From NCBI GenBank assembly GCA_963575745.1, contig CAUYUJ010000233.1, positions 62,001-116,502 on the forward strand: a stretch of DNA of 54,502 bases. The letters run 5' to 3'. A model generated the notes under the pieces. That model saw only the letters and a list, made by a program, of their open reading frames with translations, was not told where the DNA came from and did no database searches. The stretch is from Prorocentrum cordatum (lineage: Eukaryota). Numbering within the stretch: the first letter of the stretch is position 1; the number at the start of each line of letters is the position of its first letter. The position numbers and the translations under genes were made by a program. Shown here one piece after another: positions 27,477 through 51,431 of this stretch.

Positions 27477-27952
27477 TCAGGCGGGGGGCAGCATGAAGCC
27501 CAGCTCTGCCGCGAGCTGCTCCGCCTCAGCCCTGGAGCCCACCGCTCTCTTGTCGAACTCCTCGAGCGCCTTCCGCAGGGACGCCGGCGGCCCGCGCTCC
27601 AGGAACTCTCGCGCGGGCGGCCGCAGGATCAGCATGTTCCGCATGCACGTGGCGCGGGAGAACATGACGTAGAGGTGCAGCCACCACATATCGTCCGACA
27701 TGCCCGTGCGGCCAGCGCCCTCATCCCTGGCGCAGTCGATGGTGACGCCCTTGCGCAGCGTCTGGCCCTGCGACAGCGTGGAGGTCAGGTAGGACGCGTG
27801 CGTCAGTGTGAATCCCGAGCGGCGCACAGAGTGCGCCCCCCAGCTTTGCCACGTGAACTCCTGCTCGCTGGGCCTGAACATGAGCAAGCTCCTCGCCCGC
27901 GCTTCGGCCTCGCCGTCGTCGGCAGCGCCATCGGCGCCCTGCTGCAGCCTCC
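27477..27952 (-). pseudogene. PIF1-like helicase C-terminus (open frame to stop; 5' side cut by tandem repeat)
   Basis: RRSGFTLTHASYLTSTLSQGQTL (motif V) and WWLHLYVMFSRAT (motif VI); strongly GC3-biased codons; could be a last exon rather than a pseudogene. Confidence 0.8.
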
Positions 27953-28789
27953 CGAGGCCCCCGCTCGAGACTTCCTCCATATTCAGGTCTCAAGAGCCCA
28001 AAAGTGACGACAGTTGCACGTTGCGGATGACCCGCTCGGATTCGAACATGAAGTGCGGGCCCCATAGGGAGAGGGGCCCCGCCTGAGACTTCCTCACAAT
28101 TCACTCACAGACGAGGCTCCCGCCTGATACTTCCTCCATATTCAGGCCTCAAGAGCCAAAAAGTGACGACATTTACACGTTTCGGATGACCCGCTCGGAT
28201 TCGAACATGAAGTGCGGGCCCCATAGGGAGAGGGCCCCCGCCTGAGACTTCCTCACAATTCACTCACAAACGAGGCTCCCGCTCGAGACTTCCTCCATAT
28301 TCAGGTCTCAAGAGCCCAAAAGTGACGACAGTTGCACGTTGCGGATGACCCGCTCGGATTCGAACATGAAGTGCGGGCCCCATAGGGAGGGGGCTCCCGC
28401 CTGAGACTTCCTCACAATTCACTCACAGACGAGGCTCCCGCCTGATACTTCCTCCATATTCAGGCCTCAAGAGCCCAAAAGTGACGACAGTTACACGTTG
28501 CGGATGACCCGCTCGGATTCGAACATGAAGTGCGGGCCCCATAGGGAGGGGGGTCCCGCCTGAGACTTCCTCGCAATTCACTCACAGACGAAGCTCCCGC
28601 TCGAGACTTCCTCCATATTCAAGTCTCAAGAGCCCAAAAGTGACGACAGTTGCACGTTGCGGATGACCCGCCCGGATTCGAACATGAAGCGCGGGCCCCA
28701 TAGGGAGGGGGCTCCCGCCTGAGACTTCCTCACAATTCACTCACAGACGAGGCCCCCGCCTGATACTTCCTCCACATTCAGGCCTCAAG
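27953..28789. repeat. 159-bp tandem repeat, ~5.2 units, with 318-bp higher-order dimer
   Basis: CTTCCTCCA starts at 27971, 28130, 28289, 28448, 28607, 28766. Confidence 0.95.
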
Positions 28790-29650
28790 TCAGCGAGTAG
28801 CGATGCTGATGATGATGATGATCGTTCGATGCCGATGATGGTGAGTGATCGCGGGATGGTGATGGTGATGCTGATGGTGACGATGATGATGAGTGGGGAG
28901 TGATGGTGATGGTGATGATGATGCGGAGGAGGAAACAAAGAGGAGCAGAGGAGAGGGAGGAGGAGGAGGAGGAGAGATCCTGCGCGGAGGGTGTGCAGAG
29001 AAAACAAGAACCCCACTTAGGATGTGGGGAATAAGACGCCAAACTCCAAACACCCTGACGACTTGAGCTAGCCAGAAAGGCTGAGCTGTCGTGAGCCGTG
29101 GTGCAACGCAACTGGGGAAAGCTGAAGGTGAGCCTGGAATGCTGTACCTGCTGCGGAAAGCTGAACCACCCCGAAACGAAGCCAACACCTGGCAGACCAC
29201 CCCACAGCGCAAGGGGGGAACCGAGCGACTGTGAGCCACGCAGTGCGCGCCAGCAAGGCGCAAGGCCTCTGAGCGGGGGGGGAAGCCAGCTGGCGTGGTC
29301 AGCATCGCCAGCGGGGTAGAATAGAGGGAGCTGCACTGATGGCAGCGTTGCCCTAAAGCCGAAACTAGACCAGAGCAGGCGAATCCCCAAGAGAACAGAA
29401 CTGGGAGCCGGCGGTAAACCGTCAACCTCGGTTTTTTGCGGTCTCTGCGGTCGACCGCGCGGGCCGTCTGGCCCAGTCGCAAGCAAGAAACGGGCATCAT
29501 ACAGGGTGAGCCAAACCGCCCACCACAGCGAGTGCGGAAGCTTGGGAGCGAAGCCTTTATAAGAACAAGTGACACTCAAGCGAAGCTCTTATTGAACACA
29601 CGTGCATGCATGAGAACGTACAAGTAAGAAGAAAGCAACGCAATCACAAA

Positions 29651-30260
29651 TCACAATAGGTCAAACTCGAAGTATGTGGATACAACCCGTGGAAGAACAT
29701 CAATGATATGTTCAATCGCCGACATCTCGGCATCGGTAACTGTAGCATTGTTGTCAATATAGAGAAAGCAGCACTGTAGACCTCCGCCCACACACTATCT
29801 CTGGATCTCGGCTTACGACATGTCCGTAAGACACGACCAACATCAATCCAGCAACAGACTCCGACACCAGCCGTCGACACGCCGCCATCGATGCCACAAC
29901 CGATGGCACAATACCTGTATATACTCGAAATCTCATTGAGTTCCTGCCCTATACCATCCTGAAATATGTCGTCGCCCTCACGGGCAGTATGAGTGAGCAC
30001 GTCCGCCCTTGTATCCCATTCCCTGAAGCAGTGTTCGCTCAAATCCCGTCCAGGAGCAAAGGGCCGTATATGGAACATAAAAGACATACCATCCAGGCGG
30101 TTAATAATCCTGTCAACTCTCCTCTGGAAATCCTTATTGATCACTTGCCAGTATCCCTGGCACCATGATACAACCAGGAGGCTATCACCATGAATACTTA
30201 TGGGGACTCCGAAGGCTTCAAGATCCCAATCGGCATTTTCCCATTTGGATGCGTGTACAG
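29651..30260 (-). pseudogene. RNase H-like domain with permuted motif order
   Basis: IHGDSLLVV (30181-30189), HCFREWDTRAD (30001), CGIDGG (29881-29892), then after a frameshift NATVTDAEMSAI (29726-29734); stop at 29651. Confidence 0.7.
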
Positions 30261-30910
30261 CTAGACGTTTAGCGAGACGATCCTTGGCGAGTTGCGAGCC
30301 CTCTGTCACTTCATACTCCCGAAGTTCCTGTCGGGTTTGGATGTGGACCTCACCTGTAACCCGAGGATGACTGAGACCTCTCAACACGAATCTGGAAGAA
30401 ATCGAGCAAATCCCGCGAGCAGGCATGCGCAGCGAACTGCTCAAAGGCCCCAGGCGTAGCACGAAAATCTTTCCATCACTTGGGCCCGAAGAACTCCGAG
30501 AACGTGTGGGTCCAATGCCTTTGTCCGATGGCCAGGCCCCCTCCTCTTTGGCGTTTCATCTGGCTGGATTCCCGAGAGAAGAAATTCATGCGCCGTACGA
30601 AAACGATCCCACATCACACCGTATGCACACAGACAAGCACGCACATCGCGCCACGGCCGATCTGCACTCCTCCACCCCTCGCATATATCCGCATCGAGGA
30701 CATGGATAAACTCGCAGGTATCTGTGGCCAGGTTCCAGGAAACACGAAGAAACCTCTGCACCATGGATGCAAGCCCCTCCTAGCCTCCGCATATGTCCCC
30801 CGACTCCATGTGGAAACATCCTCGCCAGGCGCCCTGGGACATGTGAACATTTTACATAAACAGAACCCCATCGAGGGAGTGCATACGCTGGAGAGGATGA
30901 TTGTCGAGCG

Positions 30911-31546
30911 TCATACCCTCAATCCCGTGCATGGCAATCCCTTGGACCTTCTCCTGATACCTCCAGAATTTGTCACGAATACTTCAGCCGGACAGCGGAA
31001 ATAATTTGCCATACCGAAGAAGCTCTTACGTGCCATGGACAAACGGTAATCAACATCAGGATGGGTAGAAGTATTGAACTCAGAATGGATCTCGACGCCG
31101 AGCACACTCAGCGAGGAAACTATGCGGAAACGTAAGACCGCTGGCGCGACGACAATGAGGTCTTCCGCGGGCACGAACACACCGTCTGCATCACAGCGTG
31201 GTGCTATCCCACAGGACATGAACCGCAATGATGACGCCTTCCACGCCATACCGAATGAGAAAAGTGGCAATGTTAGATCATGAATCATGGCCCTGAGATC
31301 TCGAACAGAGCCGGCTACAAGATAGACGTTGTCCGCCCAGAGGAAGTGACTGATGAGGAGCCCCTTACGTGCGGACCCGAAAAGGCCTTCGACTCGGTAG
31401 CCCATTCCCTTCACATCCCACGATCTGTAGACCTCGGTCCACATCGCCACGGTAATCAAGTTGAACACCAGAGGCCCCTCAGGGCCCCCCGTACGTAGAC
31501 ACCTATCCCAATGGAGCCCAAGAATTTCCATCCCCTCGACGATCAC
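30911..31546 (-). pseudogene. reverse transcriptase, domains 4-7 and thumb
   Basis: LRTGGPEGPLVFN (QGxxxSPxLF equivalent), SHFLWADNVYLV (YADD equivalent, 31328-31339), LSVLG, RLSMARKSF. Confidence 0.85.
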
Positions 31547-31676
31547 TGCATATATTGTCCCACATAACGGAAGCAGGAGAGCAGATTGAAGATATGGGGG
31601 GGTACATGTGCGTGTTGTAACCCTTTCCTCACATTGGCTTAACTACAATGATCGAACGCCTGTTTCATATCAGCAC

Positions 31677-31890
31677 TCACGATGTACACACTCCCACTCT
31701 TACCCTACGCATCCCCATGTTGAGCCAGTGTTTTGGAACTGATAGTAATTTCCCGTGCCTCCTGGAACCCAAAGATACCCAAGTTATGGGATATTCCAGA
31801 ACGCTGAACAAAGAATTCTCGACACGACGACAGAACACAAGCTTTCGCGTGAGGACGTCAATTTCTTGGAGCAGTGAGGGTTTCCAGAGG
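31677..31890 (-). pseudogene. APE-type endonuclease N-terminal fragment
   Basis: LLQEID at 31857-31874, upstream of RT on the same strand; only one motif seen. Confidence 0.4.
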
Positions 31891-35562: not shown

Positions 35563-38500
35563 TCACCCCCCAACTTTGGAAAATCATGTGAACCAGCGCC
35601 TTGGAAGCAGCCGCATGGTTCCTCTGTGGGTCGTTACCAAGCTATTTTTGCTACTCAGAGGAGTCGCCCTCAGTGGCTGAAAGGTGAGATGGGCCCCTCC
35701 ATCATCTACATGTGGAGCTATCCCTCGGCAGTGACGTCGAAGACTGAGGGAGTGTGTATTGCCGCTTTCGATCAACTTGGTAGCATCAAAAAACCGAAGA
35801 GCAACTGGGCGCCGGCGGTAAACCGTCAACCTTGGTTACCGCCGGAAGACTCGTAGAGCTTCCTAGCTCGACTTAAGTTGAGAAAACCGACAGCACCCAC
35901 CAACATTCCGACTCATAGTGAATATTCTTTGACCTCTGAATGCGACAGGCGGACGCGTCTGATGTCTGCGAATCGACTCCTGTCATTACCAAGGCCCTCA
36001 GCCCCCTACAGCCAGAGTTAAGTGCAGAAAACGGACAGCACCTCTCAGGATGACTCGAACAATACAGTTGTTTCGCAGACCTAATTCGGGTAGCAGACCG
36101 AGTTCCGAGCTCTGGATTCGACAGGCGGACGCGCCTGATGTCTTCAAATCGATTCCTGTGACAACAAGCACTGTAGCCCCCCTCAGCGCGAGTTCAGTGA
36201 AGAAAACCGAGAGCACTTCTCAAGATGACTCGACAAATACGAATAGTTCGCGATTCTAGATCGGGCAGCAAACCGAGTTCAGGCCCTGGATCACAGACAA
36301 AACCAACTGATGATTCTGAATTGTTTTCAGTAAATACCCTCTGTAGCTGTCCTACAGCTCGATTTAAGTACAGAAAACCGAGAGTACCTGTCAAGATGAC
36401 TCGAATAATACGAATAGGTTTGCGGACCTAGCTCGGCTAACAGACCGAGTTCAGACCTCTGGATTCAACAGGCGAACGCGCCTAATCATTCTACATCGAT
36501 TAGCTGTGCTTACCAGCTCTGTAGCTGTCCTAAAGCTCGAGTTATGTTCAGAAAACCGTCAGCGCGTATCAAGATGACTCAAAACGGCCGATCCCGCAAC
36601 AGTGCTTTTCGATAGTAATATTCACCCGATCGAGCTTGAGATCAAGATGGCAGCGGGAATTAAGCCTAGTATCCTGGAAAAATACAGAGCACTAACGAAT
36701 GGTTGATTTTCGAGAACGAATTTTCAACCGACCAAAAAAAAAAAAAAAAAAAGTCAGCAGACTATCCGTCGAGATTTTTCGAGCCAACTAGCTCTCCAGC
36801 GCGCCGGAATTACTGGGCGCCGGCGGTAAACCGTCAACCTTGGTTACCGCCGGGAGACTCGTAGAGCTTCCTAGCTCAACTTAAGTTGAGAAAACCGACA
36901 GCACCTACCAACATTCCGACTCATAGTGAATATTTTTTGACCTCTGAATGCGACAGGCGGACGCGTCTGATGTCTGCGAATCGACTCCTGTCATTACCAG
37001 CCCTGCAGCTCCCCTACAGCCCGAGTTAAGTGCAGAAAACCGACAGCACCTCTCAGGATGACTCGAACAATACAGTCGTTTCGCAGACCTAATTCGGGCA
37101 GCAGACCGAGTTCCGAGCTCTGGATTCGACAGGCGGACGCGCCTGATGTCTTCAAATCGATTCCTGTGACCACCAGCACTGTAGCCCCCCTCAGCGCGAG
37201 TTGAGTGAAGAAAACCGAGAGCACTTCTCAAGATGACTCGACCAATACGAATAGTTTCGCGATTCTAGATCGGGCAGCAGACCGAGTTCAGAGTTCTGAC
37301 GCAACTGATGATTGAATCGGTTTCTGAAAAAATATCAGCAATGTAGCTGTCCTACAGCTCGAGTTAAGTACAGAAAACCGAGAGTTCCTGTCAAGATGAC
37401 TCGAATAATACGAATAGGTTTGCGGACCTAGCTCGGCTAACAGACCGAGTTCAGACCTCTGGATTCAACGGGCGAACGCGCCTAATCATTCTACATCGAT
37501 TAGCTTTGCTTACCAGCTCTGTAGCTGTCCTTAAGCTCGAGTTATGTTCAGAAAACCGTCAGCGCGTATCAAGATGACTCGAAACGGCCGATCCCGCCAC
37601 AGTGCTTATTCGATGTAATATTCACCCGATCGAGCTGAGATCAAGATGGCGAGCGGGAATAAGATCGAATATCACGGGAAAAAATACTAGAGCTCAAACG
37701 ACTTGTTGAATTTTGAGAAGAAAATTTTCAACCGACCAAAAATCACCAAAAGTTCCGTCGAGATTTTTCTTGCCAACTAGCTCTCCAGCGCGCCGGAATT
37801 ACTGGGCGCCGGCGGTAAACCGTCAACCTTCGTTACCGCCGGGGGACTCGTAGAGCTTCCTGACAACATATAATGTCGAAAAACATTACACAGAAAAAAT
37901 ATGTTTTCAGCCCAAGCTATTTTAGACCTCTGGGATGCAACAGCCGAACGCTCCCGATGCTTCTGGATTGTCTTCTGTACAAGCTCTGTAGCTCTCCTAC
38001 AGCCCTAGATACGTGCGTAAATCGACAGCAGCTCTCAAGATGACTCGAACAATACGAATAGTTTGGCAAACCTAGCTCGAGTATCAGACCGAGTTCAGAT
38101 ACATGCGACAGGCGGACACGTCTGATGTCTCTGAATCGATTTCTGTGATTACCAGCCCTGCAGCCCCCCCTAGAGCCCGAGTTAAGTGCAGGAAACCGAC
38201 AGCACCTCTCAGGATGACTCGAACAATACGAATGGTTTCGCGAACCTAGTTCGGGCAGCAGACAAAGTTCGGTGCTCTGGATTCGAAAGGCGGACGCGCC
38301 TGTTGTCTCCGAATCGATTCCAGTGATTACCAGCATGCAGACCCCTACAGCCCGAGTTAAGTGCAGAGAACCGACAGAATCTCTAAAGATGACTCGAACA
38401 ATACAGTTTCGCGATTCTAGATCGGGCAGCAGACCGAGTTCAGAGCTCTGGATTCAACAGACAACGGCCACTGATGATTCTGAATCCGATTCTGTACGTA

Positions 38501-49225: not shown

Positions 49226-49976
49226 CAGCCGATCCCGCCGCGATGCTTCTTTGCAGAAGTAGTTACCCGATCGAGCTGAGATTAAGACGGCGAGCGGAAA
49301 TAAGATCGAATATGGTCAGAAAAAATACTAGAGCTCTAACGAATGATTGAATTTCGAGAACAAAATTTTCAACCGACCAAAAGTCAGCAAAAGGTCCGTC
49401 GAGATTTTTCTGCCAACTAGCTCTCCAGCGCCCCGGAATTCTTAGGCTTCCAGCAATAACTTGCTAAGGGGAGCTCTACGAGTTACTGGGCGCCGGCGGT
49501 GAACCGTCAACCTTTGTTTTTTGCGGACTTTGCGGTCGACTGTGCAGGCTTTCCAGCCTAGTCGGAAGCAAGGAAGCGGACGTATAGGGAGCAGGCGAAG
49601 CCTCACCGATCCTGACGATCAGGAAGACGACAGCCTAAGCTCTTATGAGTGTGTGAAGTGAAGCACGCACGCACGACACGCACAAGCATGGCATGAGCGA
49701 GCAGCGGACACCTAATCACATCAACTCAAATCCGAAATACGCTTGTACAACCCGCGGTATGACAAGAGTCTTATGCTCAACGTCAAATGTGAAGTGATGA
49801 ATTAATGAGATCAAATACTATCGAACATCTTTGAGGCAACAGTACGTCTCCATCAACAGGCACGTCGGAACGATCAAGAAAATGAATGAAACCTGTCTCT
49901 GAATCCGTCTCACTGAACAAGCACGTGACACAATACAAGCAAGCAACAAAGAGAGGCGGCGGCAGGCAGCATATAC

Positions 49977-51392
49977 TTAGGTGTAATGTATAGTATTAGC
50001 AGGCCTCGTAAACACAGGCCTCGTAGACGCAGCACTCGCCACAGAACCTGATCGCGCCAGTCCCTGAAGTCTCTGGACGAAGGCCTCGAGTTGATTTTGT
50101 CTAGCCTCCAAGCTTCTGTACCTTTTGTCCAAGCTGGAAATTGCAACACCCTGCTTCTGTACCTGGGTCTGAACATTATCGATTTTAATACCCTGAACAA
50201 CTATGGCGTCCTGGATCCTCTCAGTATTGCCATCCATCTTATGCATCGTCTGAAGTAGTAAGCACTTCATGTCATCCTGCCTTCGCTGTTCTACACCGAA
50301 AGTTGCATACCAGTGGTCACGAATAGCTTCATCCCACTCCTCTTCTGTCGCAAAACCGAAAGCTGCATACTCTTGTCCTCGTATGTTGGCGCCTTTAGAG
50401 CTCTTGGCCGGCTTGGCGCTGCTATGATATCGTTGGCCTTTGCCTCTGCCTTTGCGGTGACCTCGTACAGGATTCGATGCCTCATTGAGCGTGACGGGAC
50501 GATTCAGACACTCCTGGGACGCTCCTGACAAGGCGCGGCTATCATAATCAGACTGCACGTTCGGAGAAGACTCCTCACTCGAGGGTGCCTCCAGCTCCTC
50601 CTCCGCCGCCACAGTCACTTTCCCAAGAAGAACTCCTGAAGCTTCTCCCTCCATCCCAACGACACTCTCTGTCTGACAGCCGACTTCACAATGAAAGTCC
50701 GCAACATCCGTACTAGAAGAAGCCTGCACTCCAATATCTACCGAAGAGACCCGTGGGCAAACCACCATCATCTGAGAGAACTGATCGCCTCCGAATCCCT
50801 GACCAACCTCCTCCCGCATCAAACTGCAAGAAAGATTTTCCGAGGGTGTCGTAACGGCAGTTTGCTCCACCTCCAAATGATTATACCGAGTCTGCAATCC
50901 AACATCAAACACGGAATCCGCAGCCAGCACTCCAGCATTTGCCGAAGGGGCACATGGATATTTGGCTTGAAGCATACGGCAAGAAAGATTCTCCGAAACA
51001 GTCGTAATGTCAGCCTCCTCCTCCTCCTCCACCAAACTGCATTTAACAACAAGTGGATCGCGCAACAAGAGATAATCTAGAACCAAATCGGCAGTCGTCC
51101 GTTCCAGCCCTGGTGGTGGGAGACACGTAGGTGGCACCAAACCTTCCAGAGGCAAACGAACAGGTGAATGCACACAGTATCCGTTTTGAACAGCCAGCGC
51201 CCGACGCATAATGCGAGCACTTGCACTCCGCACGCGTGGCATAGCGAAAGATTGCAGAGACTGCCTCGGAAGCACCCAGCAATACAAATCAATCGAAGAC
51301 CACTCAAGGCGATCAAACGTGTCAAATGAAAGGCGGTGCAATATCACTCTAGGCGACAAACGTGTGACCCCCTGACTCGCACTCGATCCCAC
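49977..51392 (-). CDS. ORF1-like protein (471 aa): low-complexity N-half, C-terminal coiled coil
   Basis: long non-repetitive ORF; heptad-like MKCLLLQTM...VQKQGVAISSLDKRYRSLEARQNQLE; true start codon uncertain. Confidence 0.6.
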   Translation of the reverse strand: MGSSASQGVTRLSPRVILHRLSFDTFDRLEWSSIDLYCWVLPRQSLQSFAMPRVRSASARIMRRALAVQNGYCVHSPVRLPLEGLVPPTCLPPPGLERTTADLVLDYLLLRDPLVVKCSLVEEEEEADITTVSENLSCRMLQAKYPCAPSANAGVLAADSVFDVGLQTRYNHLEVEQTAVTTPSENLSCSLMREEVGQGFGGDQFSQMMVVCPRVSSVDIGVQASSSTDVADFHCEVGCQTESVVGMEGEASGVLLGKVTVAAEEELEAPSSEESSPNVQSDYDSRALSGASQECLNRPVTLNEASNPVRGHRKGRGKGQRYHSSAKPAKSSKGANIRGQEYAAFGFATEEEWDEAIRDHWYATFGVEQRRQDDMKCLLLQTMHKMDGNTERIQDAIVVQGIKIDNVQTQVQKQGVAISSLDKRYRSLEARQNQLEAFVQRLQGLARSGSVASAASTRPVFTRPANTIHYT

Positions 51393-51431
51393 TGGAGGTT
51401 ACCCAGGCAGAGGGGATCAAATGTCAAGCGC

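Follow-up and report, generated by a model that had tools for sequence, protein, structure and literature searches.

The window analysed here, a stretch of 54,502 nucleotides from Prorocentrum cordatum within which all coordinates are given, carries on its minus strand, at 29654-31842, what is most probably a dead copy of a long interspersed nuclear element (LINE), whose family closes its second open reading frame (ORF2) with a circularly permuted archaeal-type type-1 RNase H. We put the probability of this reading, which draws on sequence comparison and a predicted structure, at roughly 85%. Each half of the domain appears to correspond to one half of a single parent fold, and the two stand in swapped order within one predicted domain, as expected of a circular permutation. 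Because the connectivity is non-canonical, both in the motif order of 89 out of 89 family proteins and in the AlphaFold2 model, the domain is best regarded as a variant and not as a canonical member of the aRNH/RVT_3 group. The chain would begin at strand β4 and run β4(D)-αB-αD-β5-(R)-αE(D), followed by a linker of 25-50 residues and then by β1(D)-β2-β3-αA(E), where it ends. The new termini would lie in the former αA-β4 loop, the old termini would be joined by the linker, and the five-stranded sheet with its D-E-D-D two-metal site would be re-formed. In intact elements, the domain probably acts on the RNA:DNA hybrid that their reverse transcriptase produces in target-primed reverse transcription, degrading its RNA template. 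Removal of the RNA template is the established role of RNase H in RNase H-bearing LINEs.

Motif order in the window copy and its relatives

Read from the minus strand between 29651 and 30260, the motifs follow the order GDS, H.FREW.TRAD, DGG, GVGV, TDAE and stop, with a single frameshift at about 29758. A first-pass annotation of this DNA had given the series as IHGDS, HCFREWDTRAD, CGIDGG...AGVG, a post-frameshift end and a stop, with one frameshift near 29765. Located in window coordinates, this order proved exact, and tblastn of P0001, the closest intact relative, spans the break with three collinear pieces at 86% identity, with the junction at codon I386, position 29758. Residues 555-1297 of the 1306-residue relative P0008 map onto 29654-31842 in several frames, in-frame stops included, and the 5' start of the window copy at about 31842 corresponds to approximately residue 555 of P0008 (tblastn). 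Further tblastn alignments of the relatives locate the changes of reading frame at about 30380 and at 29758. All four catalytic carboxylates are kept in the window copy, the equivalent of E223 (numbering of the relative P0005 throughout) lying in the shifted frame. Three conserved positions are substituted, namely N130 (48/48 in the family) by Asp, F175 (38/47) by Ile and G187 (43/47) by Cys. Owing to the frameshift inside the domain, the upstream frameshifts and stops, and these three substitutions, the window copy is, judged from its sequence, a non-functional, 5'-truncated pseudogene. In the upstream reverse-transcriptase-like frame (30911-31642, minus strand), the peptide LWADNVYLV can be read as a YxDD-like motif; neither this frame nor the domain frame gives any Pfam match on its own.

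A word-indexed search yielded three relatives: P0001 (420 aa, 86% identical), P0002 (78%), which is a Prorocentrum cordatum protein, and P0003 (56%). All three read GDS...H.FREWNTRAD...FDGG...GVGVG...TVTDAEL...stop in one unbroken frame. Since intact relatives carry the swapped order without a frameshift, it was not produced by decay. The family as a whole comprises 79 representatives (50% clustering; exhaustive phmmer, E≤1e-3) from ENA, JGI, NCBI and Logan sources, and its named sources are Prorocentrum cordatum and one EukProt record labelled Pyramimonas. Half-domain hidden Markov models (HMMs), built from the two halves of the family alignment A1, were scanned against 123 family proteins (i-E<1e-3); the C-half and N-half denote here the equivalents of the C- and N-terminal halves of RNase H. 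Both halves are present in 89 of the 123 proteins, and in 89/89 the C-half comes first and each half occurs once, although these 89 include near-identical cluster members and are not independent. The order recurs far beyond chance. Within these proteins there is neither a tandem domain nor an N-half upstream of GDS, and the same scan found no N-half upstream of the domain in members of 1184-1455 aa. The earlier remark that no DG/AE half precedes GDS holds for the window and for the full-length relatives alike, and the proposal of a naturally permuted RNase H in a retrotransposon gains support from a swapped order conserved across the 79 representatives. From the conserved Glu to the C-terminus the median distance is 24 residues (n=35), too short for a second C-half. 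The spacing between the Asp of RAD and that of DGG ranges from 26 to 50 residues, with a median of 36 (n=56).

The long members of the family (P0008, 1306 aa; P0027, 1455 aa; P0074, 1299 aa; P0100, 1279 aa; P0116, 1286 aa) carry the domain at their extreme C-terminus. Pfam RVT_1 is found at approximately 550-785 in P0008, P0027, P0074 and P0100, and also in P0032 and others. A profile of six full-length members (A3) matches human L1 ORF2p (8c8j, E 3.3e-10) and Bombyx R2 (8gh6, E 9.5e-4) and no others. On the basis of RVT_1 in the long members and of this full-length profile match, the family members are classed by sequence as LINEs, that is, as retrotransposons without long terminal repeats (non-LTR). 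The Exo_endo_phos match is weak (E 0.04-0.05); alignment A3 holds an invariant D/E/N/D/'SDH' pattern, which we take to be APE-like. Several clusters contain multiple full-length ORFs, grouped at at least 90% identity, on different contigs, and these near-identical ORFs suggest recent activity of the family. The members P0012, P0017 and P0027 show insertions with repeated 'IPGGGGKPH' or 'GGPGCDD' peptides in the long spacer between reverse transcriptase and RNase H. A search of metagenome contigs with P0001 gave eight pattern matches, none of which was confirmed. A profile word-search with A1 yielded 11 proteins, all of them family members; canonical sequences that could form a bridge were absent.

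RNase H kinship and predicted fold

The residues expected of an RNase H active site are strongly conserved in alignment A1: D73 of GDS (39/41), H124 (40/48), R127 (48/48), E128 (45/48), N130 (48/48), D134 of RAD (49/49), D176 of FDGG (47/48) and E223 of TDAEL (37/39). Upstream of the domain, R48 (27/34) and W59 (32/38) are conserved as well. The semi-conserved fifth active-site position is occupied by Arg instead of His in 48/48 sequences of A1; this residue, R127, is matched in 3u3g by the R of 'PREKNARAD', and the motif H.[YF]RE.N.RAD is shared with the cellular archaeal-type RNases HI. Compared with all PDB sequences, the A1 profile matched only archaeal-type RNases H below E 0.9, namely LC11-RNase H1 (3u3g, E 1.2e-4), Sulfolobus tokodaii RNase HI (3aly and 2ehg, E 1.3e-4 and 1.4e-4), Halobacterium RNase H1 (4e19, E 1e-3), LC11-RNase H1 with bound hybrid (4h8k, E 1.6e-3) and the M. 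tuberculosis Rv2228c protein (3hst, E 9.5e-3). The significant stretch pairs profile positions 98-171 with chain residues ~71-134. A second stretch, weak and non-significant alone, pairs positions 199-242 with chain residues 3-53 of the N-half, and here the swapped order becomes visible. Pfam RVT_3 is the commonest family among the members (17/49, best E 3.5e-5); in P0005, the one member displayed, residues 67-138 match profile positions 62-121 of 123. Both the RVT_3 and the PDB matches run through the C-half only, in agreement with the expectation of the first-pass annotation that linear HMMs would score the domain partly. In the ESM Atlas, the nearest clusters are RVT_3/RNase_H, with scores of 0.90-0.92. 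Pfam gave no RNase H match for the window frames and P0001-P0003 as single sequences, and phmmer of P0001 and of P0008 against PDB returned no matches.

The family was further aligned by hhalign with 81 E. coli-type and 120 RVT_3-type RNases HI. The C-half is placed correctly at E 5-6e-4; in the E. coli enzyme, the partners of D134 and E223 are D134 and E48, respectively, with low probability. Across these 201 canonical-order enzymes, the best stretch of the N-half HMM lies in the first half of the target in 184/201 and that of the C-half HMM in the second half in 200/201. RVT_3 was found in prokaryote genomes in 0/5 and then in 2/201, and one of the matches (L082) seeded the canonical set. 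Several of these comparisons weigh against a permuted RNase H. The N-half stretches reach just -1.5 to 2.7 bits in HMMER, the N-half HMM has a median score of -0.2 bits on the 201 canonical RNases HI, and the N-half gives E 0.01-0.1 in hhalign while covering the αA helix only. The RVT_3 score of P0005, at 16.1 bits, lies under the curated cut-off of 21.6. The 201 canonical targets are also mutually related, as are the 89 family proteins, and neither set consists of independent trials.

AlphaFold2, run on P0005 with alignment A1, predicts one confident domain, with a predicted local distance difference test (pLDDT) of 86.3 and a predicted template-modelling score (pTM) of 0.82; of the 244 residues only 1-30 are disordered. 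An extra helix (39-54) precedes strand 66-72 (β4, with D73 directly after it), helix 75-81 (αB), helix 90-110 (αD), strand 122-124 (β5) and helix 131-141 (αE, which holds D134). A short structured linker (142-166) leads to strand 167-180 (β1, holding D176), strand 183-195 (β2), strand 201-213 (β3) and helix 219-238 (αA, with E223 close to its start). In the model, this order, β4-αB-αD-β5-αE-linker-β1-β2-β3-αA, is the RNase H series rotated by one cut in the αA-β4 loop. Structure prediction had been named in the earlier annotation as a check, and the model shows a single domain with each acidic residue on the expected secondary-structure element; we take D73, D134, D176 and E223 to sit on the same elements as their E. 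coli RNase HI equivalents. The extra upstream helix was also considered as a relic αA, which is unsupported, the family-profile self-comparison being without internal repeat.

Structural comparison recovers both halves of the RNase H fold separately. Foldseek with the P0005 model gave no match at E≤1e-3, 3aly_A standing at rank 22 (probability 0.97, 84 columns), and sequential structure aligners match RNases H over model residues 56-147 only, at 21-29% identity. Sequential aligners are blind to a permuted relationship as a whole, and the structural matches are indeed partial. The second half is represented by P0009, a natural database fragment of 108 aa that comprises the end of αE, the linker and the entire second half, with no sequence edited (model pLDDT 94.6). 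Its structure was compared, independently of Foldseek, with 48,161 representative chains. Among the best 50 matches, RNase H N-halves stand among the tied top matches with the lowest root-mean-square deviations (rmsd) there, 1.6-2.1 Å: 4e19_A in first place (score 4.7, rmsd 2.1 Å over 60 positions, 23% identity, range 67-128) and 3u3g_D in second (4.7, 1.6 Å over 60, 23%, 1-62). They are followed by 3aly_B in fifth place (4.3, 1.7 Å over 57, 21%, 1-65) and by 1goa_A, E. coli RNase HI, in eleventh (3.9, 2.4 Å over 59, 17%, 1-61). Altogether 14-15 of the best 50 are RNase H domains, those of human H1, human immunodeficiency virus 1 (HIV-1), foamy virus, Ty3, cauliflower mosaic virus (CaMV) and a gammaretrovirus included. 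Wherever the numbering of an RNase H match is readable, the match falls on the N-terminal half. The same solved RNases H are matched by the first half of the domain over residues ~65-140 and by its second half over residues 1-65.

Alternative readings and relation to known RNases H

The permuted fold could be genuine and yet lack nuclease function, the domain serving instead as a module for structure or hybrid binding, in the manner of the degenerate, RNase H-derived connection domains found in retroviral reverse transcriptases. The position of the domain under the Pfam cut-off fits such a module, and the conserved extra helix and Trp upstream, together with the long linker, would allow another role. 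We nevertheless consider it unlikely, since 93-100% of the sequences keep the archaeal-type Arg, the Asn and each of the four carboxylates, even though the members are only 25-80% identical. Inactive RNase H relics typically lose such residues, and the D-E-D-D set is described as not conserved in degenerate gRNHs (Ustyantsev et al. 2017, PMC5348765).

The two halves might alternatively be partial relics of a tandem RNase H duplication that do not assemble into one domain, so that the permutation would exist in linear order only. Dual RNase H arrangements are indeed known from retroelements (PMC5348765), but a single confident AlphaFold2 domain is unexpected for independently placed halves. Exactly one full set of catalytic residues is present and strongly conserved, the missing outer halves are retained by no member, and the self-comparison of the family profile shows no internal repeat, all of which makes unassembled relics very improbable. 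Chance likeness of the motifs, or convergence on an unrelated α/β fold, is scarcely credible in view of five distinct archaeal-type RNase H PDB sequences at E 1.2e-4 to 9.5e-3 with nothing else below 0.9. Furthermore, RVT_3 is by far the commonest Pfam family, RNases H head the fragment search with 1.6-2.1 Å rmsd and 21-23% identity, and the ESM Atlas neighbours are RNase H clusters. That the order is an artefact, due to decay of this copy, to misassembly or to faulty gene models, might be argued from the frameshifts and stops of the window copy and from the many repeats and the assembly gap of the window. This reading is already refuted by the same order in uninterrupted ORFs of 1279-1455 aa and in ENA, JGI, NCBI and Logan proteins, and by the collinear window DNA.

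The aRNH domains of LINE ORF2 were reportedly treated by Smyshlyaev and colleagues in PNAS in 2013. Plant Ta11 L1 and oomycete L1 LINEs carry an aRNH (RVT_3) at the C-terminal end of ORF2, and the archaeal-like RNase H signature is D-E-D-R-D, with Arg versus the His of the fungal and metazoan type (Ustyantsev et al. 2017, PMC5348765). A Repbase screen with a linear HMM in that study placed aRNH retroelements in plants and oomycetes only. The present family resembles these elements in that the domain closes ORF2 of a LINE, in the D-E-D-R-D signature, and in its nearest sequences and structures, the RNases H of Sulfolobus tokodaii, Halobacterium and LC11. It differs from them in having β4..αE before β1..αA and in its named hosts, which are dinoflagellates and not plants or oomycetes.

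Two RNase H-derived segments also adjoin in the polyproteins of the dual RNase H elements, which include retroviruses, plant Tat and the LTR elements Archon and Chronos of oomycetes (PMC5348765). These possess two complete domains, one of them degenerating, whereas the family keeps one domain's worth, C-half then N-half. By analogy, a dual RNase H arrangement is a plausible precursor state for a permutation by duplication. With the cellular archaeal-type RNases HI (3aly, 2ehg, 3u3g, 4h8k, 4e19), the family shares 21-29% identity in the C-half and 21-23% in the N-half, the latter at 1.6-2.1 Å; unlike them, its domain is permuted, contains a structured linker of 25-50 residues and an extra conserved N-terminal helix, and forms one chain with a reverse transcriptase. 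For folding studies, E. coli RNase H has been circularly permuted by engineering, and new termini should be tolerated by this fold in the LINE family as well. In contrast to these laboratory constructs, the family is natural, old and diversified, with 79 clusters at 50% identity.

Full-text searches, with subscription journals, supplements and Repbase notes outside the scope, brought up no paper in which a retroelement has a permuted RNase H. The RNase H-like superfamily survey by Majorek et al. 2014 (PMC3985635) has 0 occurrences of the stem 'permut' in its main text, and the lone mention of permutation in PMC2628886 is generic. We would give even odds to a more far-reaching interpretation of the permuted domain. 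A catalytic type-1 RNase H would here be found naturally permuted for the first time, in a form that is fixed, still active and long diversified within an abundant LINE clade from dinoflagellates and other sources. Loss of the outer halves from a dual aRNH-aRNH tandem would account for its origin, and since linear HMM screens would have passed it over, too few RNase H-bearing LINEs would be counted in these genomes.

In research on catalysis, protein folding and the evolution of retroelements, RNase H serves as a model fold. If the permuted form is old and widespread, the fold tolerates a cut in the αA-β4 loop under selection, beyond the laboratory. The family would provide a concrete case of domain evolution through duplication and loss within a retrotransposon polyprotein, and it would explain why, in annotation by HMMs, the RNase H of these LINEs is missed wholly or by half. 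It would also affect the classification of transposable elements in dinoflagellate genomes and bear on the view that archaeal-like RNases H were captured by plant and oomycete elements only. Entry of the chain at β4 instead of β1 may further shift the position of the nuclease relative to the reverse-transcriptase active site.

Window features, second copy and shared 3' tails

Table 1. Positions of the LINE remnant, its RNase H motifs and the second copy in the window.
Feature	Position	Strand	Reading or basis
Stop-to-stop frame, 303 codons	29644-30555	-	reads LAKDRLAKRLAVHASKW...ISIHGDS...HCFREWDTRADVLTH...CGIDGG..AGVGVCCW...SVWAEVYSAAFSI
Shifted frame, 47 aa	29651-29794	-	continues IDNNATVTDAEMSAIEHIIDVLPRVVSTYFEFDLL, then stop
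ISIHGDS	30181-30201	-	
HCFREWDTRADVLTH (H.FREW(D)TRAD motif)	29989-30033	-	
CGIDGG	29881-29898	-	
AGVGVCCW	29848-29871	-	
TVTDAEMSAIEHIIDVL	29693-29743	-	
Stop TGA, 24 codons past the catalytic Glu	29651-29653	-	
Frameshift within β3/loop (AAFSI / DNNATV)	29756..29762	-	P0001 tblastn pieces in different frames meet at 29758
Conserved helix just upstream of the domain, LAKDRLAKRLAVHASKW	30241..30291	-	helix 39-54 of the P0005 model
First half of the domain, putative RNase H C-half equivalent (β4 with GDS, αB, αD, β5, αE)	29989..30201	-	
Linker from αE to β1, length variable in the family	29899..29988	-	model residues 142-166
Second half of the domain, putative RNase H N-half equivalent (β1 GIDGG, β2 AGVGVCCW, β3, αA TVTDAEMSAIEH), frameshifted	29693..29898	-	
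LINE ORF2 remnant, 5'-truncated and decayed, from mid reverse transcriptase to the C-terminus	29654..31842	-	tblastn of P0001, P0006, P0008, P0027, P0003
Reverse-transcriptase remnant	30986..31842	-	tblastn to P0008 555-853, P0027 571-836
3' untranslated tail, ends ...GGTTGACGGTTTACCGCCGGCTCCCAGT	29400..29650	-	
Second, severely 5'-truncated copy, last ~21 codons of the same ORF	49719..49781	-	tblastn P0003 176-196, 62% identity

A second copy of the element lies at 49719-49791, where the last 21-26 codons, ending ...VEHKTLVIPRVVQAYFGFELM before the stop, and a similar 3' tail are retained; tblastx pairs 29649-29726 with 49714-49791. From its sequence, it reads as a severely 5'-truncated copy. 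The first-pass annotation had seen the final helix conserved in a second copy at about 49720-49770. The end of the last helix and the tail are in fact preserved there, whereas the catalytic Glu is absent. The 3' tail of the LINE remnant shows 91 nt at 82% identity to 49485-49575, downstream of the tail of the second copy. The window thereby holds 5'-truncated copies with a common 3' end, one truncated at about residue 555 of 1306 and one of about 21 codons. No poly-A tail was seen at the two LINE copies.

Both LINE tails end with a 20-nt motif (...CCGCCGGCKCCCAGT), approximately 225 nt past the stop. This motif, GGTTGACGGTTYACCGCCGG, has 25 occurrences in the window versus 0 expected, mostly on the minus strand. 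Its sites comprise 29408-29427, 49493-49512 and 23 more (e.g. at 35812, 36820, 37809, 40039, 44396, 45441, 46748 and 53376), and the ~1-kb repeats that fill 32200-54500 likewise end in it. Similarity breaks off directly after CCCAGT at 12/12 aligned sites. In the short repeats, the motif forms the 3' arm of a hairpin of about 12 bp, CCGGCGGTAAC...GTTTACCGCCGG (z -1.95). Plus-strand frames over the motif read 'GAGGKPSTS' (29320-29562) and 'PAVNRQP' (29369-29509). The motif could mark a target site preferred for insertion; it could also be a 3' tail that the LINE has in common with non-autonomous elements.

An open frame of 473 codons (49977-51398, minus strand) immediately precedes the 21-codon LINE tail; it has no Pfam family match and no similarity to the LINE proteins in tblastn. 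The open frame at 7692-8327 (minus strand) ends in a CCHC zinc knuckle (Pfam zf-CCHC, E 2.9e-5) and is, judging by this motif, probably a Gag-like remnant of another retroelement; the adjoining frames at 7483-8827 gave no family match. A frame of 170 codons at 27477-27989 (minus strand) reads '...SQGQTL...V.ID...LYVMFSRA...', which we presume to resemble the C-terminal motifs of Pif1/helitron-type helicases; Pfam returned nothing for it at E≤0.1. About 0.9 kb 3' of the stop of the LINE remnant, a 159-bp satellite occupies 27953-28789 with 5.3 copies and 92% matches. Very long trinucleotide and low-complexity arrays (poly-H/S/D/T/L frames) extend over 1-3400 and ~3480-3580, and an assembly gap appears there as a run of N.
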